Source: Candidatus Omnitrophota bacterium
GTDB taxonomy: Bacteria > Omnitrophota > Gorgyraeia > 2-01-FULL-45-10
DNA: 64,000 nt
NCBI GenBank assembly: GCA_028715345.1
Contig: JAQUSB010000005.1
Coordinates: 10,042-74,041 of the forward strand
Direction: 5' to 3'
Shown: one piece after another, positions 2,491 through 47,373 of the stretch
Numbering within the stretch: the first letter of the stretch is position 1
Layout of the letters: each line of letters starts with the position of its first letter
Made by a program: the position numbers and the translations under genes
Notes under the pieces: generated by a model
The model's input: the letters and a program-made list of their open reading frames with translations, nothing else
The model's database searches: none
What the model was told of the DNA's origin: nothing

Positions 2491-2531
2491 AGTAGCGCAC
2501 CCTTAAGGGTGCGCTACTTTTGTGGATAATT
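2491..2531. repeat. REP-like palindromic element copy 1
   Basis: Sequence AGTAGCGCACCCTTAAGGGTGCGCTACT plus TTTGTGGATAA tail. It sits between convergent genes, and the same family recurs at 21060, 27187, 31231, 31768 and 47348. Confidence 0.8.
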
Positions 2532-3075
2532 AATCAGAAGGCTTGCCGAAACACTTCCATACAAAATTCGACGCGATCTTATTCGAAATGAGCGGTATAC
2601 TGTCCTCGGCGCTCATCTTTTCTTTTATGTGCGGATTGAGCAGTTCTTTCCAGACAAGTTCACCCGTATCGGTTTTTATTACGGCGAATTCGACTGCCAT
2701 CTCCGCGTAATTCATAGTCGCCGATGCCGCCATGTCCAGAAGGGTAGTGCCTAACCCCGGAGTGGGTTTGATGGGGCCTCTTTCCATGTACATGAATTTT
2801 TTAATGACCGAATAGATCTGGACGTCGCTTTCTTGCGGGGTCTTAGCCAGCTCGAATTTCACCGATTTACGGTTCAAGAGCGCCGATTCCAGAGCTTTTT
2901 TAAAGTCTATCTTTACGATCTTATTTTGCCCGGATCGATTTTCCGGTTCCCCGACATATACTTTAATGGAGCCTTTATCCTGCCCTATACGCCATAGCCC
3001 TCCTTCAGCCGTTGCCGCCGTTTGGCCCAGTGCGAGGGAAGCGATAACCGCAAAAAACAGCAACTTCTTTGCCAT
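2530..3075 (-). CDS. hypothetical secreted protein (signal peptide)
   Basis: 181-aa ORF with an N-terminal signal-like 'MAKKLLFFAVIASLALGQTAATA'. No recognisable catalytic motif. Confidence 0.5.
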   Translation of the reverse strand: MAKKLLFFAVIASLALGQTAATAEGGLWRIGQDKGSIKVYVGEPENRSGQNKIVKIDFKKALESALLNRKSVKFELAKTPQESDVQIYSVIKKFMYMERGPIKPTPGLGTTLLDMAASATMNYAEMAVEFAVIKTDTGELVWKELLNPHIKEKMSAEDSIPLISNKIASNFVWKCFGKPSD

Positions 3076-3096
3076 ATATGCTCCTTTCTTTTATCG

Positions 3097-3125
3097 TTGA
3101 ATTTCGGGAACCCTTATATTATAAT
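3097..3125 (+). promoter_or_regulatory. sigma70-like promoter TTGAAT-N17-TATAAT
   Basis: Hexamers lie 27 nt upstream of the 3152 start codon in the divergent intergenic region. Confidence 0.35.
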
Positions 3126-3151
3126 ATCCGCTAAATACATAAGCAAGGTAT

Positions 3152-3598
3152 ATGAACTATTTCGTAGAATTCAGTAAAAATTATATATTCTGGGCGTCTG
3201 CCGCCTCCTGGATAATAGCGCAGAGCATAAAGGTCGCGCTCGGCGTATTCAGGGAGAAGCGGTTCAATTTCCGCTGGTTCATAGGCACCGGCGGGATGCC
3301 GAGTTCCCATGCCGCCGGGGTTTCCGCCCTTGCCACATCGATCGGGGTCACCTACGGTTTCGATTCGGCGCTGTTCGCCATATCCCTGATATTCACCCTC
3401 ATAGTGATGTTCGACGCGCAGGGTGTCCGCCTTGCCACGGGCAAACAGGCGGAGATACTCAATAAGATGCTGGACGACATTTACTGGAAGAAGAAGCTGG
3501 ACGAAGATCAGCTGAAAGAACTTATAGGCCATACGCCCGTCGAGGTATTTGCCGGGGCGTTTCTGGGTATTGTGATATCATTACTGCTGTATAAATAA
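3152..3598 (+). CDS. divergent PAP2/DUF212 family membrane protein (YuiD-like)
   Basis: Signature 'GGMPSSHAAG' and multiple TM helices. Confidence 0.65.
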   Translation: MNYFVEFSKNYIFWASAASWIIAQSIKVALGVFREKRFNFRWFIGTGGMPSSHAAGVSALATSIGVTYGFDSALFAISLIFTLIVMFDAQGVRLATGKQAEILNKMLDDIYWKKKLDEDQLKELIGHTPVEVFAGAFLGIVISLLLYK

Positions 3599-3620
3599 AG
3601 GATAAGAAAGAAGGTACTGT

Positions 3621-4478
3621 TTGAATAAAAATGTCCTCATAATAGCTCTCATAATCGTTATGTCGGTGATCGCCGCGTTTTTAGCTTACGGGATAATCAC
3701 TCGTGCGGGCGCGCCAAAGGAAGAGGTGAGCGCGGCGGCGGAAACAAAAAGCAGCGTAGTAAAAGTGAGCGCTCGTCCCGAATCCGATTATTTAACGGAA
3801 GCTGCCGATCGCGAGAAGAAGGGAGAACTTTTAAAGGCCAAAGAGATCTATCAGGAAGTATTGGAAAAATTTCCCGGCTCCGGCAACGTATCGAAGGCCC
3901 AGGAAGCCCTGGACAATTTGAATGTGAAGATGCTCTTCTCCCCGGTCATTACTCCCGACTCTTTTTCTTACGAGATACAAAAAGGCGATACGCTGACTAA
4001 GATCGCGAAGAAATTCAACACTACTGTCGAGCTTATAATGAAAGCCAACGGCCTTAAAGACGCTAACGTAAAAGTGGGCAGGAAACTGAAGATAGCGAAA
4101 GCGAAATTCAGCATAGCGGTGGATAAATCCCAGAACATCCTGACATTGAAAGCCGACCAGGATGTATTCAAGACTTACAGGGTTTCGACAGGAAAAAACT
4201 CCTGCACTCCCGTCGGGACATTCAAAGTGACGAATAAGCTTATCGATCCTCCGTGGTATCCCTCGACAGGCGGTATGATACCCGCCAAGGACCCGAAGAA
4301 CGTCCTGGGCTCCAGGTGGATAGGCTTGTCCAAGCAGGGCTACGGCATACACGGCACCGTAGAGCCCGAATCTATAGGTAAGAGCGTCACCGAAGGCTGC
4401 GTCAGGATGAGAAATGCCGAAGTGGAAGAATTATACTCGATAATACCCGTCGGGACCGAAGTGGTCATCGTAGATTGA
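3621..4478 (+). CDS. L,D-transpeptidase (YkuD) with LysM domain
   Basis: TTG start with upstream RBS and an N-terminal TM. LysM segment is '[16 protein letters not shown]...GRKLKI'. YkuD catalytic 'HGT...EGCVRM' is present. Confidence 0.75.
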
Positions 4479-4506
4479 TCCCGTAACTAAAAAAAGAAAG
4501 TCCGAT

Positions 4507-5475
4507 ATGGCTACACGTCATATACCCGGCCTCGATTTCGAGAGGCCTATAATGGAGCTGGAGCGGAAGATAGAGGAGCTCAAAGGCTTCACTTCCCATA
4601 AGGATATCGATATATCCGGAGAGGTGACGCGGCTAGAAGCGAAGCTCGCCCATATAAAGAAAGACGTTTACGATAATCTCACGCCATGGCAGAGAGTGCA
4701 GTTGGCCAGGCACCCCAAAAGGCCTTATACCCTCGATTATATAGAATTGATGATGACCGACTTTATCGAGATACACGGCGACCGCCATTTTGCCGACGAT
4801 AAAGCAATGATATGCGGGTTCGCGAAAATTAACGGAGACAAGGTCGTCGTTATCGGCCATCAGAAGGGCAAAGACACCAAAGAGAACCTGGAGAGGAACT
4901 TCGGCAGCGCCCATCCCGAAGGTTACCGTAAGGCGATGCGCGTAATGAAGATGGCGGAGAAATTCGATGTGCCCGTCGTGGTTTTCATAGATACTCCCGG
5001 CGCTTATCCGGGGATAGGGGCCGAAGAGAGGGGCCAGGCCGAAGCCATCGCGTTCAATCTGCGCGAAATGACAGACCTCAAGACGCCGGTGATAGTGTTC
5101 GTGATAGGCGAAGGCGGGTCCGGCGGCGCCCTGGGAGTGGGGGTCGGAGATAAGGTTTATGTCCTCGAGAACGCGTACTATTCCGTCATCTCGCCCGAGG
5201 GTTGCGCTGCGATATTGTGGAAAGAGCGCTCGCGTTCACCCGATGCCGCGGCGGCGCTCAAACTTACCGCGAAAGACCTATTCGATATGGGCGTTATCGA
5301 CGGTATAGTGAAAGAGCCATTAGGCGGCGCGCACAGGAACCCGAAAGAGGTGGCGGAAAATATCAAAAAGATAATAAAAAAGGATATAGCGGCGTTAAAG
5401 GATGTGCCGAAAGACAAGCTCATAGAAGCCCGCTATAATAAGGTCAGGGCGATAGGCATATTCAAGGAGCCGTAA
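4507..5475 (+). CDS. accA: acetyl-CoA carboxylase carboxyltransferase subunit alpha
   Basis: '[17 protein letters not shown]' and 'GGSGGALG' are typical AccA. Confidence 0.9.
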
Positions 5476-5504
5476 TTTTGGGAAAAGATCGATGGTTAAA
5501 CTAA

Positions 5505-5541
5505 GCCGGCAGATATGACAATATGCCGGCTTTATTTTTTG
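5505..5541 (+). terminator. rho-independent terminator after accA
   Basis: GCCGGCA-loop-TGCCGGC hairpin followed by a T-run. Confidence 0.5.
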
Positions 5542-5556
5542 ACAATAGGGGGTGTT

Positions 5557-6084
5557 ATGAAACGTTATAAGTTCTTATCGATGATCATGGTCCTCGGATC
5601 CCTGGCAGGCTGCTGCGCCCATTCCGATAGCGGCACCTGCGAAAAAAAGAGCGTGGTCGCGAAGGTGAACGGCTACGAGCTGACCGAGAGCGATTTCCTG
5701 AACGAGGTAACGCTTATTTCGCCGAAGATCTACCAGTCCGCGGATAAAGAAAAAGCGAAAGAGCGCGCGCTGAACGAGCTCATAACCAAAAAAGTGCTCC
5801 TGCAGGAAGCCCAGAGATCTAATTTCGATAAAGACCGGAAATTCATGAGGGAGATCGAAAGGTATTGGGAGCAGGCCCTGCTTAAACTTTTGATGAAGAA
5901 GAAGATCGACGAATTCTCCAAGGCCATCTCCCCGGAGGTGCCTTTCGAAACACGGCAGCAGATATTGCGCGCGGAGATAAGTAAGTGGATAGCGGATGTC
6001 CGAAACGCCGCGAAAATAAAGATATATAAGGAAAACCTTGATAAAGTAGAGATCAAAGAGGGAGGCCTCGATGGAAGAGAATAA
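5557..6084 (+). CDS. SurA N-terminal-domain-like periplasmic chaperone lipoprotein
   Basis: Lipobox 'LAGC'. 'VVAKVNGYELTESDFLNEV...LNELITKKVLLQEA' resembles the SurA N-terminal domain. Start chosen at the internal Met. Confidence 0.45.
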   Translation: MKRYKFLSMIMVLGSLAGCCAHSDSGTCEKKSVVAKVNGYELTESDFLNEVTLISPKIYQSADKEKAKERALNELITKKVLLQEAQRSNFDKDRKFMREIERYWEQALLKLLMKKKIDEFSKAISPEVPFETRQQILRAEISKWIADVRNAAKIKIYKENLDKVEIKEGGLDGRE

Positions 6085-6619
6085 GAACAGAAGAAGGAAT
6101 TATTACATCAAGAAAGATTTCCAGAGAAATTTTATACTGAAGTTCTGTCTTCTCGTCCTTCTGGGCTCGGCCGTATCGGGAAGCATCATATACCTGATGT
6201 CGAAAGCCACCGTTACGACTTCATTCGAAAATCTCAGGCTTGTGATAAAGAGCACCGCCGACTACATCCTGCCGGCCGTATTATTGAGCGGGTTTGTCGT
6301 GATAATGATCACCGGAATAGCGGCCATATTCATAACGCTTTTCACCTCGCATAAGATCGCGGGCCCTCTTTACAGGATAGAGAAGGATATAAATGAGATA
6401 ACGTCCGGGAACCTGAGGCAGGAATTCAACTTAAGGCAGGGGGACGAGATCAGGCCCATAGCCGAAAGCTTAAACGAGATGGCCCATTTCCTGCGTGATG
6501 AAATAGGCGGGCTGAAGAAGGCGTTGGCCGACCTTGAGTCTGCCGGCGGCAGCCTTCCTCCCGAGGTGCGCGAAAAGATAAAAACGCTGAAAACAAAACT
6601 GGATAAGTTCAGAACGTAA
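6071..6619 (+). CDS. membrane protein with HAMP domain
   Basis: Two TM helices followed by a HAMP-like 'AGPLYRIEKDINEITSGNLRQEFNLRQGDEIRPIAESLNEM'. Confidence 0.5.
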   Translation: MEENKNRRRNYYIKKDFQRNFILKFCLLVLLGSAVSGSIIYLMSKATVTTSFENLRLVIKSTADYILPAVLLSGFVVIMITGIAAIFITLFTSHKIAGPLYRIEKDINEITSGNLRQEFNLRQGDEIRPIAESLNEMAHFLRDEIGGLKKALADLESAGGSLPPEVREKIKTLKTKLDKFRT

Positions 6620-6620
6620 T

Positions 6621-7211: not shown

Positions 7212-7229
7212 TGCGAAAATTGCTATAAT
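7201..7229 (+). promoter_or_regulatory. extended -10 promoter (TTGCGG-N17-TGCTATAAT) for tRNA-Ala
   Basis: TGnTATAAT ends 14 nt upstream of the tRNA 5' end. Confidence 0.4.
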
Positions 7230-7243
7230 AAACGGCATTTCCC

Positions 7244-19465: not shown

Positions 19466-20700
19466 AAGCCCTCCCGGCTCTGCCCGGCGTATATATAATG
19501 AAGGGCGCCGAAGGCCGGGTCCTGTATGTAGGCAAGGCCGGGAACCTTAAAAAGCGCGTATCGAGTTATTTTTATCCGAACCGAAGGCTTAACGAACGCA
19601 TAGACCAGCTCGTTTCCTCTATAGCCGATATCGAGCATATGACCACTTCGACGGAAGCCGAAGCGCTCATCTACGAAAATAGCCTCATAAAGCAGTTAGC
19701 CCCCAGATACAATATCGCCCTGCGCGATGATAAAAGCTACCCGATGCTTAAATTGACGGTGAACGAAAAGTTCCCGCGCCTTTTTATTACCCGCAGGAAA
19801 GTGAACGACGGGTCGATGTATTACGGCCCTTACGCGAACGCGAAACTTCTTAAAGAAGCGGTGGTGTTATTGCGGCAGATGTTCCCTTTGCGGACCTGCG
19901 GGAAGATGCCGAAAAGCCTCTGCCTGAATTATCACATTAAACAATGCCTCGGGCCGTGCGCAGGCAAAGTGACCGATGCGGAATACGCCGACGTCGTGTC
20001 CGAACTCAAATTATTCCTGGAAGGACGCAAGGCGGAACTCCTGAAAGCGCTGACCGAGAGGATGACGAAAGCGTCACGCGCCGAAGATTTTGAGAAAGCG
20101 GCCGAGCTGCGCGGCAGGATCGAGGCTTTGAGCACGATAAAAGAAGACTCGGTGAGCTATAAGCCTCTGGGTGAGATGGAAGAGCTCGGGAGGATACTCG
20201 GGATAACGAAACCGCCGGAAAAAATAGAGGCGTTCGACGTTTCGAATATAATGGGACAAGAAGCCGTCGGCTCTATGGTCTACTTCTATAAAGGCAGGCC
20301 CAGGAAGAGCGAGTACAGGAGATTCAAGATCGCGACTGTCCCCGGGATAGACGATTACGCGATGATGCGCGAGATAGTCAGCAGGAGATATTCGAAACTG
20401 TCGGAGCCCGGCAGGGTGCGGCCCGACCTCATATTGATCGACGGCGGGAAAGGGCACCTGGCGGCCGCTTTGGGCGAACTCGACAAACTGGGCCTTGCGG
20501 ATATTCCGGCGATCGGCATTGCCAAGGAATTCGAACATATCTACACAAAGGACAAAAAAGATCCTATCGTATTGCCAAAAGAATCGAAGGCCTTGCATTT
20601 ATTGAAGAGGGTGAGGGACGAAGCGCACAGGTTCGCCATAGCCTACCACAGGAAACTGCGCTCTAAAAAACTTTTACCTGAAAGAAAAAGGAAAAGATGA
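19444..20700 (+). CDS. uvrC: excinuclease ABC subunit C-like (GIY-YIG + UvrBC + endonuclease domain, no C-terminal HhH)
   Basis: GIY-YIG segment 'GVYIMKGAEGRVLYVGKAGNLKKRVSSYF', a Cys cluster 'CLNYHIKQCLGPC' and a UVR domain. Ends after the RNaseH-like domain at 418 aa. Confidence 0.7.
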   Translation: MDLKEKVKALPALPGVYIMKGAEGRVLYVGKAGNLKKRVSSYFYPNRRLNERIDQLVSSIADIEHMTTSTEAEALIYENSLIKQLAPRYNIALRDDKSYPMLKLTVNEKFPRLFITRRKVNDGSMYYGPYANAKLLKEAVVLLRQMFPLRTCGKMPKSLCLNYHIKQCLGPCAGKVTDAEYADVVSELKLFLEGRKAELLKALTERMTKASRAEDFEKAAELRGRIEALSTIKEDSVSYKPLGEMEELGRILGITKPPEKIEAFDVSNIMGQEAVGSMVYFYKGRPRKSEYRRFKIATVPGIDDYAMMREIVSRRYSKLSEPGRVRPDLILIDGGKGHLAAALGELDKLGLADIPAIGIAKEFEHIYTKDKKDPIVLPKESKALHLLKRVRDEAHRFAIAYHRKLRSKKLLPERKRKR

Positions 20701-21026
20701 AAAAACGGCGCGGGATATTGTCGGTCATTTTGAAAAATAAAAATTTAAGCGATTTCGAAAAAGCGGTTTACAAGGCCCTTTTAAAGATACCAAAAGGCGA
20801 GGTGCGCAGTTACAAATGGGCGGCCTGTGCTGTCGGAAGGCCTAAAGCGGCGCGCGCGGTAGGCAACGCATTGAATAAGAACCCGTATCCTGTCGTTGTC
20901 CCGTGCCACAGGGTCATATGCTCGGACGGCTCCATAGGCGGTTTCGCGCGCGGCCTGAAGGCCAAAAGGCGCCTCCTGGCGAAGGAAGGCGTTGACTGTT
21001 TTAAGGCGCGTTGCTATAATCAATAG
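20697..21026 (+). CDS. ogt: methylated-DNA--protein-cysteine methyltransferase DNA-binding domain protein
   Basis: Active-site 'PCHRV' motif. Confidence 0.7.
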   Translation: MKKRRGILSVILKNKNLSDFEKAVYKALLKIPKGEVRSYKWAACAVGRPKAARAVGNALNKNPYPVVVPCHRVICSDGSIGGFARGLKAKRRLLAKEGVDCFKARCYNQ

Positions 21027-21067
21027 ACTGCGGGGCAGCGTTGCTATGATCAATAAGCCGTAGGGCA
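21008..21067 (+). repeat. 30-bp direct tandem repeat carrying TTGCTATAAT/TTGCTATGAT
   Basis: Units are 'gcgttgctataatcaatagactgcggggca' and 'gcgttgctatgatcaataagccgtagggca'. The second runs into REP copy 5. The first contains the extended -10 TGCTATAAT, a candidate prfB promoter. Confidence 0.6.
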
Positions 21068-21085
21068 GGTTTAAACCTGTCCTAC
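21060..21085. repeat. REP-like palindromic element copy 5
   Basis: GTAGGGCAGGTTTAAACCTGTCCTAC, with one G:T position in the stem. Confidence 0.7.
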
Positions 21086-21108
21086 GTTGTAATTTGATAA
21101 AGGAAAAT

Positions 21109-22219
21109 ATGATCGCGGAGCTTAAGGAAACAATAAATATATTAGAGGAGAAATTCAGGAACCTCAGAGGTTATCTTTGAGGTAGGCAAAAAGTGCGAAC
21201 ACATTGCCTCTCTGGAAGATGAGTCGTCCAAGGACGGATTCTGGAATGACGAAACCCGCTCTAAAGAATTATTCAAAAAATTAAAAGCGCTTAAATCGGA
21301 TATAGAGCCCTTCATAAAACTCGAAAGCGAATTTAAAGACCTTAAGGACGTGATATCCATTGCCGGGCCGGAAGACGCATCATCCTTAGAACATTTCAAA
21401 AATGACCTCGCCGGCATAATTAAGCGGCTCGACGCGCTGGAATTCAGGACGCTCCTGGACGATGAGGCCGATAGGTCCAACGCCATACTGAGCGTAAACG
21501 CGGGCGCGGGAGGGACGGAGTCGTGCGATTGGGCTGCGATGCTTTTGCGGATGTATATAAAGTGGGCGGAGTCGAAAGGTTTTAAGATCGATATCATCGA
21601 CCAGCTCTCGGGTGAAGAGGCGGGCATAAAGAACGCGACGATGCTTATAAAAGGCGAATACGCCTACGGCTTTATGAAATCCGAGACCGGAGTCCATCGT
21701 CTCGTCAGGATCTCGCCGTTCGATTCGAATAAGAGGCGCCACACTTCTTTCGCATCCATAGATATTATACCCGAAGTATCCGACGACATACAGCTCGACA
21801 TAAAAGAAGCGGACCTGAAGATAGATACGTATAGGGCGGGCGGCAAAGGCGGACAACATGTCAATAAGACCGATTCCGCCGTGCGCATTACGCATATCCC
21901 GACCGGCATCGTGGTCCAGTGCCAGAACGAGCGCTCGCAGCTTAAGAATAGATCGACGGCGATGAAGATATTGAAGGCGAAACTGTACGAGCGCGAGCGG
22001 ATGAAGAAAATGAAGGAGCAGGAGAGCGCTTACGACTCGAAAAAAGAGATAGCGTGGGGAAGCCAGATACGTTCTTACGTCCTGCACCCTTATTCGATGG
22101 TAAAAGATCACAGGACCGATTTTGAGACGGGCAAGGCGCAGGCTGTGCTAGAGGGTGAGATAGACGATTTCATCGAAGCGTATCTTAAGTGGGCAAAGGA
22201 GCAAAGGACCGGCAAATAA
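21109..22219 (+). CDS. prfB: peptide chain release factor 2, programmed +1 frameshift (21109..21177 frame 0, then 21179..22219)
   Basis: A 23-codon frame-0 ORF '[23 protein letters not shown]' ends at CUU UGA G. It is preceded by an SD-like AGAGGU. The +1 frame continues into the RF2 body with 'SPF' and '[16 protein letters not shown]'. Confidence 0.85.
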
Positions 22220-26507: not shown

Positions 26508-26755
26508 TATTGGGGATGACGGCAGGGGCTTTGACCACTATATCTTTCGTACCGCAGGTGATAAAGATCTATAAGATGAAAGACGCCAAAGAGCTTTCGC
26601 TCGCGACTTTCGCTATTTTTTCCTGCGGTGTATTTTTATGGCTTGTGTATGGTATAATTATACGGGAATGGCCGGTCATCCTTGCGAACGGCATAACGTT
26701 CGCGCTGATCTGCCTGATAATCGCGATGAAGATAAAATATAGCGGGACGAAATAA
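26495..26755 (+). CDS. SemiSWEET / PQ-loop 3-TM transporter
   Basis: 87 aa with three TM helices and 'SFVPQVIKIYK' (PQ motif). The 26192 long form is rejected. Overlaps the lnt 3' end by 13 nt. Confidence 0.55.
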   Translation: MERLILGMTAGALTTISFVPQVIKIYKMKDAKELSLATFAIFSCGVFLWLVYGIIIREWPVILANGITFALICLIIAMKIKYSGTK

Positions 26756-26781
26756 GCCCGACCGTAAATGGGGGATCCGAA

Positions 26782-27162
26782 ATGAAAAAAGTCAAAGTTC
26801 TCCTGGTGGACGACGAGCCGGATTTTTTGAAAGTGATGAGTTTTCATATAACGGACTGGGGGTACGACCTCGTCACTGCGACCAACGGCAAAGAGTGTGT
26901 CGATATCGTTAAGGCCCAGAAGCCCGACATCGTGATCCTGGATTATGTCATGCCCGACATGGACGGCCTGAAAGCCCTGGCCCAGATCCGTAAGATAGAT
27001 AAAGAATTACCCGTAATAATGTTCACGGCAAATCCCGATATCAAATCGATAAAAGGCACTAAGAAACTGGGCGTCAGCGCCTACATACCAAAACTTTGCG
27101 TCTATACGGACGTTCCCTCGTCGGTAAAGGACGAGCTTGAAAAGATAGTGAGAACGCTGTAA
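26782..27162 (+). CDS. stand-alone response regulator receiver (CheY-like)
   Basis: 'VLLVDDEPD', 'DIVILDYVMPDMDG', and a conserved Lys in 'IKSIKGTKK'. Confidence 0.75.
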   Translation: MKKVKVLLVDDEPDFLKVMSFHITDWGYDLVTATNGKECVDIVKAQKPDIVILDYVMPDMDGLKALAQIRKIDKELPVIMFTANPDIKSIKGTKKLGVSAYIPKLCVYTDVPSSVKDELEKIVRTL

Positions 27163-27186
27163 CGGCTTTCATCCCACAAATTACGA

Positions 27187-27225
27187 TTTATACACAAAGT
27201 AGCGCACCCTTAAGGGTGCCCCAAG
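27187..27225. repeat. REP-like element copy 2 (decayed right arm)
   Basis: TTATACACAAAG tail plus TAGCGCACCCTTAAGGGTGCC. The right arm is degenerate. Confidence 0.55.
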
Positions 27226-27441
27226 CTTTGCTCTTGCCTGAGCTGGGCGGCCCTATCAATAGGACGTTGTGGACGAAATACGACGATTCCCTTCGAGATA
27301 GAGGCGGTTTTAAGATGAAATATAACCAGATATTCGGCGCTTTTCGTCGGATAATTGAAGTGCGAAGAGTTAATATTTCACGTGAAATAAATGGGCGAAG
27401 GGATAAAGGTCGAGGTAAAAATGACAGTAAAATAAACCTTG

Positions 27442-27472
27442 ACATCGAAGCTTGCCAAATGCTATAAAGTAA
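27442..27472 (+). promoter_or_regulatory. sigma70-like promoter TTGACA-N18-TATAAA for island operon
   Basis: 'ttgacatcgaagcttgccaaatgctataaag' lies about 100 nt upstream of the first island gene. Confidence 0.35.
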
Positions 27473-27570
27473 TGTAAGCTTTAAAAGAAAACATATGTTA
27501 AAACCCGCCAAAGTAGTGCATAGCCAAAAAATCCGCGGCTATTTTTATGTTATGGAGAGGAGGCGATAAG

Positions 27571-27747
27571 ATGACACGTCCGCAAACCAATAAAGAAATA
27601 CAAGAGCAGTTTATTAAAAAAGCCCAGAGTGCCGGTGTCACAGTCTATAAGAACAATATTCACACGGCTAAACCATTATCGCAAATCTGCGGATCTATCA
27701 AGACAAGGTATCCTTCCTGCACCCGGGATCTTATCTGCGGACGATGA
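27571..27747 (+). CDS. small protein (58 aa), translationally coupled upstream partner of PIN protein
   Basis: Strong SD 'GGAGAGGAGG' 8 nt upstream. Its stop overlaps the PIN start (ATGA). No recognisable fold. Confidence 0.35.
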   Translation: MTRPQTNKEIQEQFIKKAQSAGVTVYKNNIHTAKPLSQICGSIKTRYPSCTRDLICGR

Positions 27748-28430
27748 GCCCAGATAGTTCATCCTATAAGAATTTTTCTGATAGGCCTATCCCACCCATT
27801 CTATATGTTGATACTAGTTTTATTGTAGATGCCCTAGTTGATGGGCAGCTTTTCCATAAGGAATCTATGGGGTTTATCGACGAGATGGCTAAAGATGTCG
27901 ATAAGCAGCCTATTCTCATATTCTCTGATATCCTGAAGATTGAATTGAAATGCGCTGTTACTTCAATATGCATAAGAAACGACTACGGTAAAAATATTAG
28001 TATAAATAGAGTGCTTAAGCTGCATCCGGATTTAATACAAAAATATTACCCCACTGTGGAGTTGGCAGAAAAACAGTTTATGGATGTCTTGCAAAGATTT
28101 AAGAACTGGACATCCATGCCTATTGATGAAGAAATAATAAATAGAGCTGGATCGGTTATGCCAAAATACCGACTTGGGAGTTCAGACGCAATACATGTTG
28201 CTACGATGGAAAAGTGGGATATAAAAGATATATTGACATACGATTGGGGCATCGAGGATCTTCCGATGTATAAAGGGGATTGCAGTGTTTGGACCTGTAA
28301 TGGATGGCGAAGGTATCTTAGCCGATCAAAACGGCGTAGTAAGCGTGATGAGGAATTAAAGAGACTAATTGAAGAAGCCAAAGAAATACTTAAGCTAGGA
28401 TCCAGAGACGAGAATAGGTCGTTAGCGTAA
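27744..28430 (+). CDS. PIN-domain nuclease with C-terminal basic/coiled extension
   Basis: N-terminal 'ILYVDTSFIVDAL' (first Asp) and C-terminal 'SSDAIHVATM' (PIN fourth acidic motif). Confidence 0.55.
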   Translation: MSPDSSSYKNFSDRPIPPILYVDTSFIVDALVDGQLFHKESMGFIDEMAKDVDKQPILIFSDILKIELKCAVTSICIRNDYGKNISINRVLKLHPDLIQKYYPTVELAEKQFMDVLQRFKNWTSMPIDEEIINRAGSVMPKYRLGSSDAIHVATMEKWDIKDILTYDWGIEDLPMYKGDCSVWTCNGWRRYLSRSKRRSKRDEELKRLIEEAKEILKLGSRDENRSLA

Positions 28431-28463
28431 TAGTGTTACGATAAAATCAGAGGATAGATCATC

Positions 28464-29270
28464 ATGACGATTTGTATAGGTGCATTGTGTGATCAAGGTA
28501 AAAATTGCATTGTGGCGGCAGATAGGGAGATCACCGCCCCCGGTCTTAGCTTAGAATTTGATCATGAAAAGAAAATAGAACCGTTAACCGATTCTTGCGT
28601 AGTAATGTCGGCGGGAGATTCGCTTCTTGCTGCTGAAGTTATAGAAAAAACACGCTCCATCGTTACTGGCAAGTCCGGCGCTACTATTCGACAGATCGCT
28701 GAAGCGTTGAAGAATGTTTATTTTCAGGTTCATACTGAAAGGGCAGAAAACGTTATTCTACGGCCGCGCGGCCTTACTTTGGCAGAGTATAAACAAAATG
28801 GCGCGCAGCAAATTCCTTTACAGGCATATATGAACATAGACAATCTTTTCTGGACCTTCGGTATTAATGTAGTTGAGTTCATCATAGCTGGCGTTGATTC
28901 CACAGGAGCGCATCTTTTTAGAATATATTATTCTGGTATAGCTGGTGGAAACTGGTTGGAATGGTGCGATAGGATTGGCTTTAGGGCGATAGGTTCCGGT
29001 GCGTTGCATTCAGCAATATTACTTTCTCTCGACGGTCAGCATAAAAATACGGCGCTTGAGCAAACGATATACAATATTTATTCTGCAAAAAAGAGCGCTG
29101 AAGTAGCACCTGGAGTCGGCCCATCTACCGACATAGCTGTTATAACTTCTTCCAAGGTAGATTTTCTTTCTACGACGGCGATCGACAAGCTTTCAACCGT
29201 TAGATGCGAAGCTCTGAAAAATAGACTAGTAAATTCTGAAAAAATAAAAGGAATTTATGAATCAAGATAA
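28464..29270 (+). CDS. proteasome beta-subunit/HslV-like N-terminal nucleophile (Ntn) hydrolase
   Basis: Thr immediately after Met ('MTICIGAL'), 'CIVAADREIT' (Asp17 equivalent), a Lys about 33 and 'AIGSGALHSA' (the GSG motif of the T1 peptidase family). Confidence 0.55.
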   Translation: MTICIGALCDQGKNCIVAADREITAPGLSLEFDHEKKIEPLTDSCVVMSAGDSLLAAEVIEKTRSIVTGKSGATIRQIAEALKNVYFQVHTERAENVILRPRGLTLAEYKQNGAQQIPLQAYMNIDNLFWTFGINVVEFIIAGVDSTGAHLFRIYYSGIAGGNWLEWCDRIGFRAIGSGALHSAILLSLDGQHKNTALEQTIYNIYSAKKSAEVAPGVGPSTDIAVITSSKVDFLSTTAIDKLSTVRCEALKNRLVNSEKIKGIYESR

Positions 29271-29463
29271 TGCGATTAATATTGCTAATGTAATAACAAA
29301 CACAAGATATTGTCAGAATGATGATTATTATAATCTCTTTTTAAGGGCCACAGAGATCGACCTGGAAAGCATAAAGGTTGCCCTGCGAACGGGGACGATA
29401 ATTGATCTTATTAGCCCTTCGCTTAAAGAAATACTTAACGAGAAAGCGAATCAGGACTTCTAA
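29257..29463 (+). CDS. hypothetical small protein (68 aa)
   Basis: ORF overlaps the preceding gene by 14 nt in an operonic arrangement. No motifs recognised. Confidence 0.3.
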   Translation: MNQDNAINIANVITNTRYCQNDDYYNLFLRATEIDLESIKVALRTGTIIDLISPSLKEILNEKANQDF

Positions 29464-29520
29464 TTTATTGCAGGCCTTTGTTTTATTGACATCCCATCCC
29501 CATAGGTTTACAATGGCCAC

Positions 29521-30234
29521 ATGGACGGTACCAAGGCTCTCATAGACCTCGAAAACCCGAAAAGCATTGCAGAGCTACTTCGCGAACCTACCATAAAGAT
29601 ATCCGAATTCCTTACCGGGCTGATCATTTCAGATAAGAACGACTATAAATTATCTGCTGGCCACCTGGTCCAGGCGGCGATAAAGTGTAACCTTTTACAG
29701 CAATTTGGCCGCGAGATAAAGCACTACCGCGAAAAAGGCAAGATCAAAGAGGACTTTTTCTCAACCGATAAGCAGCGCGCTACATTGCGAGAGTTGCTCG
29801 AGTTCATAGATAAAGAAGCACCGGATGAGGATCGTTTCAAGGCTATGAAGTCGATATTTTTTGCAACAATTTCAAAAGATTCCACTGGCCCTGATGAAAT
29901 ACTCGGATACGAGCTCATGCAGATATGTAAAAAATTAACAAGCAATGACGTAGTTCTTTTAAAAACGGCTTATAGTGTTTACATTGGTGGAAGTTCTGCC
30001 CCCATAGAGGAAACTACAAGGCCGCGCGAAGCGACGGCATGGTTCAATATCATTGCAGAAAAAATAGGCCATAAGTTACCGGCGTTAGCCGAATTAAGTG
30101 AGCAAAACTTAATGGATCTTAAGTTAATAGGAAGGCGGCGCTATCCCGACGGGAGCGGGCTTTATAATCAAGAATCGTTTCGTTTGACAGATTTAGGAAT
30201 TAAGCTATGCGAATTTATTACTGAATATCAATAA
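29521..30234 (+). CDS. hypothetical protein (237 aa)
   Basis: Uninterrupted ORF with AT-rich codon usage matching the island. No motifs recognised. Confidence 0.45.
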   Translation: MDGTKALIDLENPKSIAELLREPTIKISEFLTGLIISDKNDYKLSAGHLVQAAIKCNLLQQFGREIKHYREKGKIKEDFFSTDKQRATLRELLEFIDKEAPDEDRFKAMKSIFFATISKDSTGPDEILGYELMQICKKLTSNDVVLLKTAYSVYIGGSSAPIEETTRPREATAWFNIIAEKIGHKLPALAELSEQNLMDLKLIGRRRYPDGSGLYNQESFRLTDLGIKLCEFITEYQ

Positions 30235-30315
30235 AGTGAACGTCATAAAGGGTATGGTATGAGTTCTGACAAATAATATAGGTAAACTGAGCAACTCCAG
30301 AGAGGGGTTGCTTTT

Positions 30316-31095
30316 TTGTTGGAGAACTTAATGGCAGATTGCAAATCTTGCGGTTACTGGATTCCTGACGGTGCTAAGAAGTGCGCGCATTGCGGCGCCG
30401 ATATTAGTCTTACGAAGCCACAAATAGCGTGGAAATGGGTATCGTTTATCACGAATCTCGGTGCGATTGCTGCAAGCTTTGCGACATGCGTGATGGCTAT
30501 TGTCATGCTTGCTCAGAGTTCATCCATGGAAAAGCAGTCGATTTCGCTCGAGGAACAGACACAAGCCTTAAAGGTCCAGGCCGCCTCTATTAAAGCTCAA
30601 ACGAAGATCCTCCAAAAGAATTTTGAACTCGAGTATATTCCGGTTATAAAAATAGGAGCGGTAGCTTTTAATTACATACCATATAGCGACCGTCCGGACC
30701 ATCGCCTGGTGATGATGTATTTTATAGTACCTATAGAAAATAAACACGGCTTCGCGGAAAATATAAAAATAATTAAGAAAGAGATCGTTCTATTGAGAGG
30801 TACATTTAACCTTCAAAACGCGGAATGTATGCGCGGTCCTTTAGTAGAACGCCCCTTTGAATTGTCGTCTGGGCAAATCAAATACGACACAATAAAGATC
30901 GATGAAGAAGCGCCCAATTTTGAAAAGGTTATGGAAGGGAAAGAAGCCTTTATTCTCGAATATAAAATAGAATATGAAGCATTGCCGGGAGTAGTTAAGG
31001 GTAGCTATATTTATAACTATGTTATAAAATTCAGTGGAGGGCGGCAAGAGGTTATTACTGAAAATACTATACCTCCAAAGGAGACAGCACAATGA
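30316..31095 (+). CDS. Zn-ribbon membrane protein with coiled-coil
   Basis: N-terminal 'CKSCGYWIPDGAKKCAHCG' (CxxC...CxxC) and a TM helix 'VSFITNLGAIAASFATCVMAIVML'. Coiled-coil 'EEQTQALKVQAASIKAQTKILQK'. Confidence 0.45.
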   Translation: MLENLMADCKSCGYWIPDGAKKCAHCGADISLTKPQIAWKWVSFITNLGAIAASFATCVMAIVMLAQSSSMEKQSISLEEQTQALKVQAASIKAQTKILQKNFELEYIPVIKIGAVAFNYIPYSDRPDHRLVMMYFIVPIENKHGFAENIKIIKKEIVLLRGTFNLQNAECMRGPLVERPFELSSGQIKYDTIKIDEEAPNFEKVMEGKEAFILEYKIEYEALPGVVKGSYIYNYVIKFSGGRQEVITENTIPPKETAQ

Positions 31096-31140
31096 AAAAG
31101 ATGATATCTGTATTAATGATTTGCCTATTCATGTCCGGCC

Positions 31141-31216
31141 CGTATCTTTTTAAGTACCATAAGGCATTTCTTGCGAGGTGCTTCTTTTTAAGCCATGTTA
31201 TCGAAAGATAAGGAGT
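31141..31216. repeat. 76-bp duplicate of an internal yraN segment (about 93 % identity to 33519..33594)
   Basis: Aligned by eye with 5 mismatches. The 33519 copy is in frame within yraN and encodes 'GPPYLSITWLKKKHLVRNALWYLKRY'. The 31141 copy is intergenic. Confidence 0.75.
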
Positions 31217-31230
31217 TAGGATAGATTAGT

Positions 31231-31270
31231 AGTAGGGCACCTTTAAAGGTGCCCTACTTTGTGGATAACT
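31231..31270 (+). repeat. REP-like element copy 3 (left flank of RAYT)
   Basis: AGTAGGGCACCTTTAAAGGTGCCCTACTTTGTGGATAACT. Confidence 0.8.
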
Positions 31271-31273
31271 TTA

Positions 31274-31778
31274 CTAATCTATCGGGTCTATCCCTAAAGC
31301 ATTCCTATTGTTGCCGAAGTAATGATCATAACTGGAATATGGATAATCTCCAGGTGATACGGCAATGTTTTTGCGGATAGGATTATTATGTATATATTCT
31401 ATTTTTTGCATTAACATTCTCGTATCTCTTATGCCCTCATCGTAAAAACGTTTTTGCCATACCTGTCCGCTGATATTGCTTAACTTATTATACTTTCTTG
31501 CAAAACTTCCTTTTTATCATCCGCATTATGTACGATAAGTCATATTTTCCGACAGGGCGTAGTATGAGATGCAAATGGTCGGGCATTATGCAGTAAGCAT
31601 ATATTTTATAGTCTAAAATCAGTTTGTAATATTCGATCGTTATCAAAAGAATTCGACACATTTTATCATCTTTAAATATAGGGTAGCGTTCTTGTGCTAT
31701 AGTTGTCACGAAATACGAATACCCTGCTTCGAAATGACGTTTAATATTTCCCATGAAAAGCCTCCGAGTTATCCACAA
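31274..31778 (-). pseudogene. REP-associated tyrosine transposase (RAYT / IS200-like Y1 HUH), frameshifted
   Basis: N-terminal frame (31488..31778) has 'YSYFVTT' and the HuH motif 'PDHLHLIL'. A different frame (31274..about 31490) encodes 'GQVWQKRFYDEGIRD...EYIHNNPIRK...YPYSSY' with the catalytic Tyr region. Confidence 0.7.
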
Positions 31779-31808
31779 TGTAGGTCACCCTTAAGGGTGA
31801 CCTACATA
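31768..31808 (-). repeat. REP-like element copy 4 (right flank of RAYT, inverted)
   Basis: GTTATCCACAATGTAGGTCACCCTTAAGGGTGACCTACAT. Confidence 0.8.
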
Positions 31809-42909: not shown

Positions 42910-42945
42910 AAAAGAAATTTTCATAAAATAGAGGCGAGGAAAACG

Positions 42946-43902: not shown

Positions 43903-43920
43903 GACATCGATCTTTCATCT

Positions 43921-45669
43921 ATGGCGATACCCGATGATCTGATAGACAGGATCCAGGAAAAAACGGATATAGTGGAAGTTATCTCGCGCTATGTTCCGCT
44001 GAAGAAGTTCGGCAGGAATTATAAAGCGCCGTGCCCTTTTCATAACGAGAAGACGCCGTCGTTCATTGTAAGCCCGGATAAGCAGATATACCATTGTTTC
44101 GGGTGCGGGGCGGGGGGCAACGTATTCTCATTTTTAATGAAGCACGAGAACCTGCAGTTCCCGGAAGCGGTGGAGATGCTCGCCGAGAAGTGCGGTGTAG
44201 TTCTGCCGAGATCGGCCGGCGGATCGGGCAATAATGCGCTTGCCAACCAGCTGTATAAGATAAACGACGAGGCGTGCCGGTTCTTCCAGGCGTCGCTGGC
44301 AAATAACGCTGCGGCAAAAGAATATATACGGTCGCGCGGCGTAGGCGACGAAGTATTAAAGAAGTTCAAGATAGGTTTCGCGCCCAACTCATGGGACGCT
44401 TTGATAAATTTTTTCAAGGCCAGATCGGTCACCCCGGCGATGCTGGCGCAGGCCGGGCTCGTTGTGACTAACGACAAAGGCGGACATTACGACAGGTTCA
44501 GGAACAGGCTTGTCTTCCCGATCATTGACTTAAAAGACAGGGTGATAGGTTTCGGGGCGAGGGTGCTCGATTCGTCTTTGCCGAAATACCTGAATTCTCC
44601 CGAGACGCCCATATATTCCAAAGGCAGGAACCTTTACGGGCTCAATTTTTCGAAAGACGATATAAAGAAGAGCGGCCATTTTCTCGTCGTGGAAGGGTAT
44701 TTGGATTTCATAGTCCCTTACCAGGCGGGCATAAAGAATATAATCGCGACTTTGGGCACGGCGCTTACCGTCGACCAGATAAAGCTGCTTAAACGTTTCG
44801 CGAATACGGCCATTATGCTTTACGACCCGGATGAAGCGGGAGAGGCGGCCAGTTTGCGCAACCTCGATCTTTTCATAAGCGAAGACGTGAATGTCTATAT
44901 CGCGGAACTGCCGGAAGGGTTCGACCCCGACAGCTTTATAAGGAAGTTCGGGTTCGATGAATTTACGCGTCTTAAGAAATCGAGCAAGAATCTCTTCGAT
45001 TACAAGCTCGGCAAACTTACGAACAGGTTCAATATCGATACGACGCACGGCAAGATGAACATAGCCGCCGAGATGCTGCCGACGATAGCGCGTATAAATA
45101 ACGCGGTCCTGAAAGCGACATTGATAAAGAAGCTCGCCGAGAGGCTGTCGGTCGACGAGGAATCGATAAAGACGGAATTGAAGAAGGTCAAAGGCGATTA
45201 CGTCGAGCGGCGCTACGCAGAGCCGGTCGTGCAGGTAAAAAGGCATTCCTCCGGCGCGGAAATGCTGATGCTTGCTCTGATGATGGACGGAGCGAAAGTG
45301 GTCGGAAAGGTGACGCAGTCGATTTCGAGCGATGAGTTCAAAGATTCATCCATACGCGATGTGGTCGACGCGATATTCGATCTGTATAAGGCGAACAAAG
45401 AGATAACCCCGCCGCGGCTTATCAACCATTTGTCGGAAAGTCCCGAAGCGGCGGCATTGATAACTGAAGCCGTCGGCGTACTGGAAATGGTGAACGACAA
45501 GGACAAGGCCCTTACCGATTGCATTGCCAGGATAAAAAAGGACAACCTTGAAGAGCGGAAGGCTTTGATACAGGATGCCATCAAGGCGGCGCATAACCAG
45601 AAAAATGACAGCAGGGTGATGGAACTGGTCACGGAATATAACGAACTTATGAAGATGGGCAAAGCATAA
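43921..45669 (+). CDS. dnaG: DNA primase
   Basis: Zinc ribbon 'CPFHNEKTPSFIVSPDKQIYHCFGCG', RNA-pol domain 'GYLD' and a Toprim 'LYDPDEAGEAA'. Confidence 0.88.
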   Translation: MAIPDDLIDRIQEKTDIVEVISRYVPLKKFGRNYKAPCPFHNEKTPSFIVSPDKQIYHCFGCGAGGNVFSFLMKHENLQFPEAVEMLAEKCGVVLPRSAGGSGNNALANQLYKINDEACRFFQASLANNAAAKEYIRSRGVGDEVLKKFKIGFAPNSWDALINFFKARSVTPAMLAQAGLVVTNDKGGHYDRFRNRLVFPIIDLKDRVIGFGARVLDSSLPKYLNSPETPIYSKGRNLYGLNFSKDDIKKSGHFLVVEGYLDFIVPYQAGIKNIIATLGTALTVDQIKLLKRFANTAIMLYDPDEAGEAASLRNLDLFISEDVNVYIAELPEGFDPDSFIRKFGFDEFTRLKKSSKNLFDYKLGKLTNRFNIDTTHGKMNIAAEMLPTIARINNAVLKATLIKKLAERLSVDEESIKTELKKVKGDYVERRYAEPVVQVKRHSSGAEMLMLALMMDGAKVVGKVTQSISSDEFKDSSIRDVVDAIFDLYKANKEITPPRLINHLSESPEAAALITEAVGVLEMVNDKDKALTDCIARIKKDNLEERKALIQDAIKAAHNQKNDSRVMELVTEYNELMKMGKA

Positions 45670-45672
45670 AAT

Positions 45673-47331
45673 ATGGCAAGGAAAAAGATGAAGGTAAAGG
45701 TTAAGAAAATTACGGCTCCCGGCGCGGGGACGGGCACACTATTGGCTCAGAGCCTGAACAAGGCCGAATCGCAGAGCAAGAAGAAGAAGCTTAAAGGGCT
45801 TACCGAGCTGATCGCTCTCGGCAAGGAAAAGGGGCACCTGACATTCGAGGAGGTAAATAATATCCTCCCCGTGGATATAGTCTCTTCCGAAGAGATAGAC
45901 GAGATACTCGGCATACTCGGCGATGAGAATATAAAGCTTGTCGACAGCGAAGAAGAGCTGACGAAAGAGGCCGCCGAGGGTGACGAAGAAAAGCCGGAAG
46001 AGAAGAAAGAGGAAGCCGAAAAGGAAGAGACGGTGAAGCTCGCCCACATCGACGACCCCGTGAAGATGTACTTAAGGCAGATGGGGCAGATAGCCCTCCT
46101 GACCCGCAAGGAAGAGCTCGATATCGCCCAGCGCATAAAAGAGGCTGAATATAAATTCCGCGACGCGGTGCTCGCGGTCAGGATCTCCAAGTACAAAGCT
46201 ATAGAGGTGGCCGATAAGATACTCAATAACGAATTCAACGAAGAAGAGTTCATAAATACGGATATCCGGTTCAAAGGCGCTAAGCTCAGAAAGAAGCTCG
46301 CGCGCCTGATAAGCGGCCTGCAGAAGGCCAGGTCCAAAGAGGGCATAGCCGGCCTCATAAAAGAGATGAACCTCGGCATGAACGTCGTCGAGGAGATGGT
46401 CAAAAAGATCGAGGAGTACCTGGAAGAGTATTCGAAGCTTTTAGCGAAGATCGCGAGCGCGCGCAAGAGAAAAGACAGGGAAGATGTCAAAGCGCTCTCG
46501 AAGCGCAAACGTAAGATCGAGAAAGAATTCGGCGAGCCGATAACCGCCGTGAAAGAACATTTTAAGCTTGTCCGCTCGACCGAAGCCAAGTTCAATAAAG
46601 CGAAGAAAGAGCTCGTCGCCGCGAATTTAAGGCTCGTCGTCAGCATCGCGAAAAAATATACGAACAGGGGCCTCTCGTTCCTTGACCTGATACAGGAAGG
46701 CAATATAGGCCTGATGAAGGCCGTCGATAAATTCGAATATAAACGCGGATATAAGTTTTCCACTTACGCGACCTGGTGGATAAGGCAGGCCATAACGCGT
46801 TCCATAGCGGACCAGTCGAGGACGATAAGAATACCGGTTCACATGACCGAGACGATAAATAAGCTCATAAAGGTCTCGAGGGCGCTCGTCCAGCAGAACG
46901 GCAAAGAGCCGACTCCGGAAGAGATAGCGCACAAGATGCGTATGCCCGTCGACAAAGTCCGCGGCATACTGAAGATCGCGCAGGAGCCGATATCGCTGCA
47001 GACGCCGATAGGGGACGAAGGCGATACGCACTTCGGCGACTTCATCGAGGACAAGCGCGCGGTGTCGCCGGCGAACGCGACGGCGTATTCGATGCTGAGG
47101 GAGCAGATGGACGACGTGCTCGATACGCTGACGGAGCGCGAGAAGAAAGTCCTGCGCCTGAGGTTCGGCATAGGCGACGGTTATCCCAGGACATTGGAGG
47201 AAGTGGGCGCTGTTTTCAAAGTCACGCGCGAACGCGTCAGGCAGATAGAGGCGAAAGCGCTCAGGAAATTGAGGCATCCGACCCGGTCGAGGAAGCTGAA
47301 GAACTTTCTTGCTATGGGGATAGGGGAGTAG
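45673..47331 (+). CDS. rpoD: RNA polymerase sigma-70 factor
   Basis: Region 1.2 '[11 protein letters not shown]', region 2 '[12 protein letters not shown]' and region 4. Follows dnaG. Confidence 0.92.
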
Positions 47332-47347
47332 CGTTGCTTTTCCATAG

Positions 47348-47373
47348 TAGGGAAGGTTTAAACCTTCCCTACA
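47348..47373. repeat. REP-like palindromic element copy 6
   Basis: GTAGGGAAGGTTTAAACCTTCCCTAC, immediately after the rpoD stop. Confidence 0.75.

Follow-up and report, generated by a model that had tools for sequence, protein, structure and literature searches.

The window analysed here, a stretch of 64,000 nucleotides of a Candidatus Omnitrophota genome (contig JAQUSB010000005.1), contains six copies of a short palindromic repeat. These are very probably repetitive extragenic palindromes (REPs) of the GTAG-tagged superfamily, accompanied by the locus of their REP-associated tyrosine transposase (RAYT), an arrangement referred to as a REPtron. An earlier note on this DNA had proposed a REP family with two sub-variants and an associated RAYT, and that proposal was borne out by the census of the window, by the score of the protein against a RAYT model and by a family-wide split in the possession of a flanking tail. 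The repeat is a well-known kind of bacterial element, met here in the candidate phylum Omnitrophota, and orthologues of its transposase are already named RAYT by NCBI.

All six copies share the frame GTAG-N7-TTAA-N7-CTAC, a core of 26 nt with TTAA at its centre, and the GTAG tag is present at the 5' foot of every one of them. Five copies (1 to 5 in Table 1) are exact matches to the pattern GTAG-N3-A-...-T-N3-CTAC, where about 0.08 would be expected by chance from dinucleotide-preserving shuffles of the window. When all 26-mers of the window were scanned without a pattern, 11 or more of 13 palindromic pairs being required, the same five copies and one unrelated site were returned. Allowing two mismatches added a single decayed copy, GTAGCGCACCCTTAAGGGTGCCCCAA, and no further copies appeared in a looser scan of the window. 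The six copies occupy five separate loci in the 64 kb, and those outside the RAYT locus are all singletons. The core folds as an 11-bp stem closed by the four-nucleotide TTAA loop, and the intact copies, folded as RNA, have energies of -25 to -27.6 kcal/mol (z -4.5 to -5.7). The hairpins match no Rfam family, the only Rfam matches in the window being two tRNAs. At least six copies had been listed previously, and the count stands, with the corrections that 27187 and 31768 are starts of tails rather than of cores and that 47348 should be 47347. The stem sequences quoted at that time are correct, and the perfect complementarity ascribed to them holds in four copies; copy 2 has one G.T pair, and the decayed copy has lost three of its 11 pairs and keeps eight.

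Two sub-variants can be distinguished in the window. Copies 1, 3 and 4 and the decayed copy are of a CACC type and carry a tail on one side of the core, while copies 2 and 5 are of an AGGT type (GGT type in Table 1) and are tail-less. The GGTTTAAACC variant reported at 21060 and 47347 was confirmed, both copies lacking the tail. Four copies had been credited with a conserved tail; the 9-mer TGTGGATAA is exact at three of them, and the tail of the decayed copy departs from the 9-mer at one position and from the 11-mer originally quoted at two.

The RAYT gene of the window follows comM directly. Copies 3 and 4 bracket it, both tailed and in inverted orientation to one another. Its reading frame is broken by one additional A in a short run. 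Removal of one A from the run restores a protein of 159 aa, and this frame-repaired protein was the query for the model and structure searches. It matched Pfam Y1_Tnp (PF01797) at 3.6e-13 and scored 128.3 bits against the NCBIfam REP-associated tyrosine transposase equivalog NF047646, for which the cut-off is 80; the score against the IS200 model NF033573 was 34 bits, below the cut-off of 55. The best solved structure was 4ER8, the E. coli TnpA-REP (1.2e-11), to which the segments HLH, VWQKRFYD (the WQ motif) and YIHNNP could be aligned. The locus has the Y1 HUH motifs with WQ, a model score above the cut-off and flanking REPs, and the gene itself is not intact. Ninety homologues were found, mostly intact and of about 160 aa, and some sources, NCBI among them, label these 'REP-associated tyrosine transposase [Candidatus Omnitrophota]'. 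The 88-aa fragment of the split gene (P0071) was also present on two Logan contigs from different sequencing runs, each 100% identical to the window and with the same two-ORF (open reading frame) structure. The associated RAYT predicted by the earlier note is therefore present, in a frameshifted form. A programmed +1 frameshift at AAA-AGG was considered and rejected: the orthologues are single ORFs, and since no Arg codon of the window is commoner than AGG, frameshifting at a hungry codon is unlikely.

Intact orthologues of the RAYT were found in eight other assemblies (loci L034, L075, L083, L118, L121, L123, L125 and L127). In all eight the gene comes just after comM, with cores of this repeat family on either side. 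Read on the RAYT sense strand, the usual layout is hairpin, 2 nt, TGTGGATAAC, start codon ... stop codon, TTATCCACA, 2-3 nt, hairpin. In three of the first five RAYT loci looked at, the flanking hairpins are inverted and not direct. The inner part of the stem varies with the RAYT lineage, being CACC(C/T) in the window, L121, L127 and L034, GACGT in L118 and L083, GAGCC in L075, C(A/G)GGT in L123 and GCACGT in L125. Such tracking of the RAYT clade by the inner stem fits co-evolution of enzyme and repeat. The tailed copies of the window are of the CACC type, cognate to the local RAYT, and the tail-less copies resemble the L123 type. The sole variant of the tag to be seen is the upstream copy at L121, which reads GCAG...CTGC, a compensated change in which AG and CT are both kept; this copy came from a search with no fixed tag, the constancy of GTAG elsewhere being imposed by the search patterns.

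Identities of ComM and of RAYT are incongruent between these loci. The window and L118 share 87% identity in ComM against 52% in RAYT, L118 and L083 share 54% against 81%, and L075 and L123 share 76% against 52%. It follows that RAYT lineages have been swapped between distant hosts while remaining behind comM, in an exchange of cassettes at a fixed locus. The 3' end of comM (CTG TGG GGN TAA) loosely resembles the tail. At L125 (9923-9971 and 10530-10578) and at L126, the RAYT-flanking REPs carry another conserved 5' flank, CACACTAAGGACRGSACACTAAC, in direct orientation and in place of the TGTGGATAA tail.

The distribution of the family was determined by scanning species-representative genomes with the pattern GTAGSNNASSNTTAANSSTNNSCTAC, which left six stem positions free or half-free. 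It was found in at least 118 stretches belonging to at least 69 assemblies; among the matches listed, 44 of the 69 assemblies are Omnitrophota/Omnitrophica, 11 are 'Planctomycetia' metagenome-assembled genomes (MAGs) and 7 are Chloroflexota. When the matched loci and the window are taken together, 145 of 154 cores (94%) are perfect palindromes, and there are 56 distinct core sequences. Across these 56, 99.2% of the pair cells are paired, a proportion that falls to 73.9% after shuffling and to 31-40% if the partners are slid. All seven of the variable stem pairs change on both sides, in 147 cells. The few stem mismatches are half wobble pairs and half non-pairs, with no lean to an RNA-specific pattern. 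The covariation of the stems claimed previously is therefore real. That it indicates selection, as was also claimed, does not follow from the covariation by itself, because hairpin-templated correction could also give perfect palindromy. Perfect GTAG...CTAC hairpins with a centre other than TTAA numbered 3 against 145, in loci that had been chosen for TTAA-centred cores.

The cores are mostly extragenic, 120 of the 154 (78%) lying outside crude gene calls compared with 9% of random 26-mers (p=4e-93). The related loci, which were picked for containing a core, hold 167 cores in 0.99 Mb, and among these there are eight close pairs (<150 nt), short of the doublet organisation of REPINs. The division into two sub-variants extends to the whole family, the tail being present on 26 of 48 cores of the CCC/CGT type and on 13 of 73 of the GGT type (p=5e-5).

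A mechanism can be proposed by analogy with E. coli TnpA-REP and the IS200/IS605 elements. Because the unit is palindromic, either strand can fold into the 11-bp hairpin with the TTAA loop and a 5' GTAG. An HUH/Y1 enzyme would bind the folded hairpin and its GTAG in single-stranded DNA, for instance on the lagging-strand template. For TnpA-REP, an AG guide and a CT cleavage site have been described (PMC3479197), and the enzyme cleaves and rejoins DNA in vitro (PMC3333891). By the same rule, the A and G of GTAG would direct pairing to CT, which here would be the CT in the opposite foot of the stem, CTAC; the CT of this family sits in the stem and directly faces the AG, and the structure is identical on the two strands. 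Cutting and rejoining at CT would then copy the unit into intergenic DNA. The four tailed CACC-type copies (2492, 27199, 31232 and 31780) are probably immobile relics of the activity of the local RAYT, since that gene has been inactivated by the one-nucleotide insertion. The AGGT-type copies (21060 and 47347) are members of a second subfamily, the enzyme of which is absent from the window. Effects on neighbouring genes, such as a block to 3' exonucleases, weak termination or leader structure, would be secondary and specific to individual copies.

Several observations weigh against the interpretation as a REP/RAYT system. The copy number in the source genome was counted in 64 kb only, and there is no direct sign of mobility in the form of a filled and an empty site at high identity. 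The copies are singletons and not the inverted doublets (REPINs) or bacterial interspersed mosaic elements (BIMEs) of the best-studied systems, and the stems of the five intact copies in the window all differ, unlike a population built on one master sequence. The tag is paired here, and on both strands, whereas for published GTAG families it is described as unpaired at one end. The RAYT of the window is a pseudogene in this lineage, because the same one-nucleotide insertion recurs in two independent sequencing runs. Finally, the model derived from E. coli offers no explanation for the tail.

Three other explanations of the hairpins have to be set beside this one. Their near-perfect complementarity could come from mutation, if hairpin-templated strand switching copies one arm onto the other and extends the palindrome into its flanks. 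Template-switch correction of quasi-palindromes is an established process, and we regard it as a possible but somewhat unlikely source of the pattern. It would account for the fact that 94% of the cores are perfect despite 56 different sequences and for the absence of RNA-specific bias in the mismatches. It would also account for pairing that continues into unrelated flanks, where at least four extra pairs are found in 49 of 153 cores (0.6 expected) and at least eight in 18, the lengths of these runs falling roughly geometrically. REPs nested in palindromes have, however, been explained as insertions into target palindromes (section 7 of PMC3733652). Long flanks also recur in some genomes (L022, L010, L057 and L001/L006), which points to longer repeat units, and an enzyme that requires a hairpin would, as the selecting agent, give the same pattern. 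Far less probable, to the point of being hardly credible, is that the palindromes are double-stranded operators of a dimeric DNA-binding protein unrelated to transposition. Their perfect dyad symmetry, which includes the TTAA centre, and their conserved outer and central blocks are what such sites would show, but the variable positions of a half-site need no complementarity and yet 99.2% are paired. Divergent gaps, which bear promoters, are moreover not preferred (they hold 11 of 107 and make up 17% of the background gap length), and copies bracket the RAYT in the window and in eight other assemblies.

The remaining alternative is that the hairpins serve mainly as transcription terminators, or as protectors of the mRNA 3' ends of the upstream genes, and resemble one another through selection for that role, which we consider unlikely. 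The hairpins are very stable, and the window copies lie about 13-36 nt past a stop codon (40 nt for copy 4, after comM). Copies 2 and 5 alone were caught by a terminator-like scan, and copy 1 is followed by TTTT. E. coli REPs are reported to affect mRNA turnover (PMC3479197) and published REPs occur mostly after coding regions (PMC3733652). When a U-tract is defined as at least 5 T in 8, however, one follows the hairpin in 10 of 88 tandem gaps in the sense direction against 15 of 88 in the antisense. The earlier note had the copies probably acting as terminators or mRNA stabilisers. A terminator role finds no support as a property of the family, since no enrichment of U-tracts is seen behind the hairpin. 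The enrichment at gene 3' ends that such a role implies is slight, the core being nearer to the upstream stop in 52 tandem gaps and further from it in 35 (p=0.086), and the types of gap occupied are near background (p=0.078). Copy 2 is in leader territory, 23 nt before the prfB start and downstream of a promoter-like site matching at 11 of 12 positions. Termination also leaves the conserved GTAG, the TTAA centre, the tail and the linkage to RAYT without explanation. As a class, then, these extragenic repeats are not terminators, and the hairpins of the window should not be annotated as terminators by default.

The tail raises a separate question, which would add a layer to the REP/RAYT interpretation. 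In the form N2-3-TGTGGATAA(C/G)TT it is found on one side of 44 of 153 cores (about 29%), at a fixed offset of 2-3 nt, for which the chance expectation is 7e-4 per side. There are 54 exact 9-mers in 911 kb, of which 41 touch a core; the others are as many as base composition would predict. The opposite strand of TGTGGATAA reads TTATCCACA, which is exact at three copies of the window and replaced by TTATACACA at the fourth; both fit TT[AT]TNCACA, the consensus of the high-affinity DnaA box (PMC6006769). The tail might therefore be a working DnaA box which controls the RAYT, aids opening of the hairpin or loading at it, or titrates DnaA, a proposal that we hold to be decidedly doubtful. In its favour, besides the exact fit to the consensus, the fixed offset and the concentration of the 9-mers at cores, the tail occurs on both main RAYT branches and is kept across them, where the proteins share about 50% identity and the stems are free to vary. 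The TTATACACA of the decayed copy is still within the consensus, the box sits between the hairpin and the RAYT start codon, and some relatives of TnpA-REP carry the C-terminal DNA-binding domain of DnaA, although their flanking repeats are not DnaA boxes (PMC6006769). On the other hand, L123 has no tail and L125 has a different conserved flank, and because two RAYT lineages are without the tail, the pattern suits a recognition module specific to the element or the enzyme more than a universal site of the host. The consensus leaves position 5 free, and in the tail this position shows the same conservation as the rest, a weak point given that a one-mismatch filter was used. A dnaA locus was sought in the fetched loci, from which the origin boxes of Omnitrophota could have been read, and none was found. 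No paper on DnaA boxes in REPs was found in a literature search of incomplete coverage. If the proposal were true, the REP/RAYT system of Omnitrophota would be connected to the initiator of replication, and such a link of REPs to the control of replication has not been described before. The tail was also considered as a sigma-70 -10 or extended -10 element and dropped, the fit being poor by inspection and the promoter scan calling none there.

The loop of the cspA terminator had been said to embed the tail motif. GTGGATAAC is indeed present there (47765), and a single additional match is close to the chance expectation for 128 kb of sequence, both strands counted. As a candidate member of the family the terminator was rejected, its stem being unrelated and the other GGTGGATAA matches lying in coding sequence, and the motif in the loop is probably a coincidence.

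Table 1. Positions of the repeat copies, their tails and associated features in the window.
Feature	Position	Strand	Description
REP copy 1	2492..2517		GTAGCGCACCC-TTAA-GGGTGCGCTAC; perfect palindrome; -27.5 kcal/mol, z -4.7
Tail of copy 1	2518..2530	+	TTT-TGTGGATAA-T; exact TGTGGATAA from 2521
AGCGTTGCT	21037..21045	+	Candidate 5' flank motif of the GGT-type subfamily, near copy 2
REP copy 2	21060..21085		GGT type; GTAGGGCAGGT-TTAA-ACCTGTCCTAC; one G.T pair; no tail
Decayed REP	27186..27224	-	Tail 27186-27198, with TTATACACA at 27188-27196; core 27199-27224, 8/11 pairs
REP copy 3	31232..31257		GTAGGGCACCT-TTAA-AGGTGCCCTAC; on the 3' side of the RAYT gene
Tail of copy 3	31258..31271	+	TT-TGTGGATAA-CTT, TGTGGATAA from 31260; ends 2 nt before the RAYT stop codon (31274-31276)
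RAYT pseudogene	31274..31754	-	HUH motif HLH; catalytic Tyr in YIHNNP; split into an 88-aa ORF (31488-31754) and a downstream part
Frameshift site	31511..31515	-	Run of five A (T5 on the + strand); four in the L127 orthologue (ATG ATA AAA GGA)
Tail of copy 4	31767..31779	-	AGTTATCCACAAT on the + strand; 9-mer 31769-31777
REP copy 4	31780..31805		GTAGGTCACCC-TTAA-GGGTGACCTAC; on the 5' side of the RAYT gene; 40 nt past the comM stop
AGCGTTGCT	47330..47338	+	Second exact copy; overlaps the rpoD stop codon; 8 nt before the core of copy 5
REP copy 5	47347..47372		GGT type; GTAGGGAAGGT-TTAA-ACCTTCCCTAC; no tail; 15 nt past the rpoD stop; followed by ATTTATTTTA

The copies had been placed exactly at gene ends; the measured distances past the stop codon are 13 nt for folE, 33 nt for ogt, 36 nt for the response regulator and 15 nt for rpoD. 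Copy 1 is situated between convergent genes, folE (1921-2478, + strand) and an ORF at 2530-3075 (- strand), and the last base of its tail is the first base of that ORF as listed, the listing including the stop codon. Abutting this copy, CTAACTCAG occurs twice in tandem at 2475-2492; the folE stop falls within the first unit, and the second unit shares its final G with the beginning of the GTAG. Copy 2 follows the stop of the short ogt gene, and the prfB ATG is at 21109. Since the promoter-like site (20992-21020) is just upstream, this copy is probably part of the prfB 5' leader. The promoter-like -10 box is covered by a 30-nt tandem direct repeat of 80% identity (21008-21067) that enters the left arm of copy 2, which suggests a local duplication across the border of the REP. 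The segment that includes ogt and copy 2 (20694-21118) is missing in the syntenic L121. The prfB gene has a programmed +1 frameshift site (21109-21180): a short ORF0 starts at the ATG and ends with an in-frame TGA (21178-21180), the site being CTT TGA (21175-21180) after AGAGG, and the main frame of release factor 2 (RF2; PCRF and RF-1 domains) continues to 22219.

The decayed copy folds at -18.7 kcal/mol (z -2.2). It is contained in a 4.5-kb segment (26742-31231) which abuts copy 3 and is missing in syntenic L121 (GCA_041643075.1, 73-75% nucleotide identity). Besides the decayed REP, it carries the gene of the response regulator, a PIN-domain gene, a zinc-ribbon ORF and two unassigned ORFs. 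That it might be a REP-bounded insert was considered and dropped, the decayed REP being inside the segment and not at its edge. Copy 3 and its tail are bracketed by a 12-bp inverted repeat, GATAGATTAGTA / TACTAATCTATC (31220-31231 and 31272-31283), one arm of which is made up of the last codons and the stop of the RAYT gene. On the RAYT sense strand the tail of copy 4 reads AT-TGTGGATAA-CT and is followed by a GGAGG ribosome-binding site and the ATG. The only two exact copies of AGCGTTGCT are both just 5' of GGT-type cores, and this sequence is tentatively, and with low confidence, put forward as a 5' flank motif of that subfamily. Between rpoD and the cspA-like gene there is a promoter-like site with an 11/12 match (47392-47420), and about 45 nt further on a hairpin followed by eight T (about 47463-47495). 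The region 47392-47495, which has no Rfam match, may give a small transcript or form a leader. The last quarter of the window is filled by a single ORF of 5057 aa (48353-63526).

In several species the core is centred in a longer inverted repeat with outer arms GGGGACGGTTCTATTTTT ... AAAAATAGAACCGTCCCC (L022 at 3107 and 6394, L010 at 4010 and L057 at 2410), which suggests that the long-armed repeats are units resembling miniature inverted-repeat transposable elements (MITEs) in some genomes. Three Logan contigs break in mid-palindrome at ...CCTTAAGG..., L119 and L120 at their starts and L122 at its end, an assembly effect of perfect palindromes; REPs of this kind will fragment Omnitrophota assemblies. 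Four Chloroflexota loci (L040, L056, L030 and L082) contain a separate family in the same frame with a constant stem, GTAGCACAGG-N-TTAA-N-CCTGTGCTAC. Its hosts are Chloroflexus sp. MS-G and Anaerolineae MAGs, and at L056 there is a weak RAYT match nearby.

To our knowledge, REP/RAYT systems have been studied almost entirely in Proteobacteria, and the present analysis shows one in Candidatus Omnitrophota, an uncultured and little-studied phylum. No paper on REPs or RAYTs in Omnitrophota was found in a literature search of incomplete coverage. The system is unusual in that its perfect palindrome is tagged twice, its tail is identical to a DnaA box and its cassettes have been exchanged at a fixed locus. 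For the window itself the value in annotation is small, six hairpins and one pseudogene being explained. The occurrence of one repeat architecture across dozens of species-level assemblies, with the RAYT always behind comM, provides a broad comparative data set. It bears on recognition between RAYT and repeat, as the inner stem follows the enzyme lineage and the guide AG and the CT target share a stem. It bears also on the strict vertical inheritance of RAYTs, lineages having been swapped at a fixed locus, and on the purpose of sequence-conserved flanks.

The closest published group is the GTAG superfamily (Di Nocera, De Gregorio and Rocco 2013, PMC3733652), whose published hallmarks are an intergenic location, the flanking of RAYT genes, the GTAG tag, stems of 6-13 bp and subfamilies that differ by compensatory changes. 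The present repeats are short palindromes with a 5' GTAG, an extragenic location and compensatory stem variation, and they resemble the superfamily in the terminal GTAG, the stem length, the complementary changes between subfamilies with an occasional G.T, the flanking of RAYT genes and the nesting of some members in longer palindromes. They differ from it in that GTAG is paired with CTAC in a perfect palindrome with a near-invariant TTAA centre, and in being mostly singletons, about a third of which have a conserved 12-nt tail. Omnitrophota is not among the eight phyla listed in that study. The comparison with its 24 families was by their description in the text, and the repeat may equal one of them.

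The enzyme has its best solved match in the E. coli system of REP/BIME and TnpA-REP (Ton-Hoang 2012, PMC3333891; Messing 2012, PMC3479197; 4ER8). The two share a unit of 5' GTAG and hairpin, the REPtron layout and a transposase that is single-copy and domesticated-looking. The E. coli stems, however, are bulged and imperfect, with asymmetric loops, and are clustered in BIMEs with sites for integration host factor (IHF) or gyrase. The E. coli CT cleavage site is outside the hairpin at a variable distance, whereas here CT is in the stem opposite the guide AG, and no tail resembling a DnaA box has been described for E. coli. The REPIN-RAYT system of Pseudomonas (Bertels and Rainey 2011, PMC3116915; Bertels 2017, PMC5581495) is similar in its single-copy RAYT at a conserved position, flanked by its own repeats, and in its dispersed intergenic repeats. 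The mobile unit there is an inverted REP doublet, whereas doublets are rare here, and the RAYTs of Pseudomonas are described as vertically inherited, in contrast to the swapping at the comM locus.

With the IS200/IS605 insertion sequences (IS608, ISDra2) the system has in common a Y1 HUH enzyme, subterminal hairpins, single-strand chemistry and a guide that pairs with the cleavage site. The window protein nevertheless falls below the IS200 cut-off and above that for RAYT, the gene is not multicopy, and the flanking hairpins were inverted and not direct in the majority of the loci first inspected. Rho-independent terminators, too, are GC-rich hairpins just past stop codons, and copies 2 and 5 pass a simple scan for them, but a family-wide U-tract is lacking here, and conserved blocks and linkage to a transposase are not features of terminators. 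The genuine terminator of cspA (47754-47784) has a stem that is unrelated to the repeat family.

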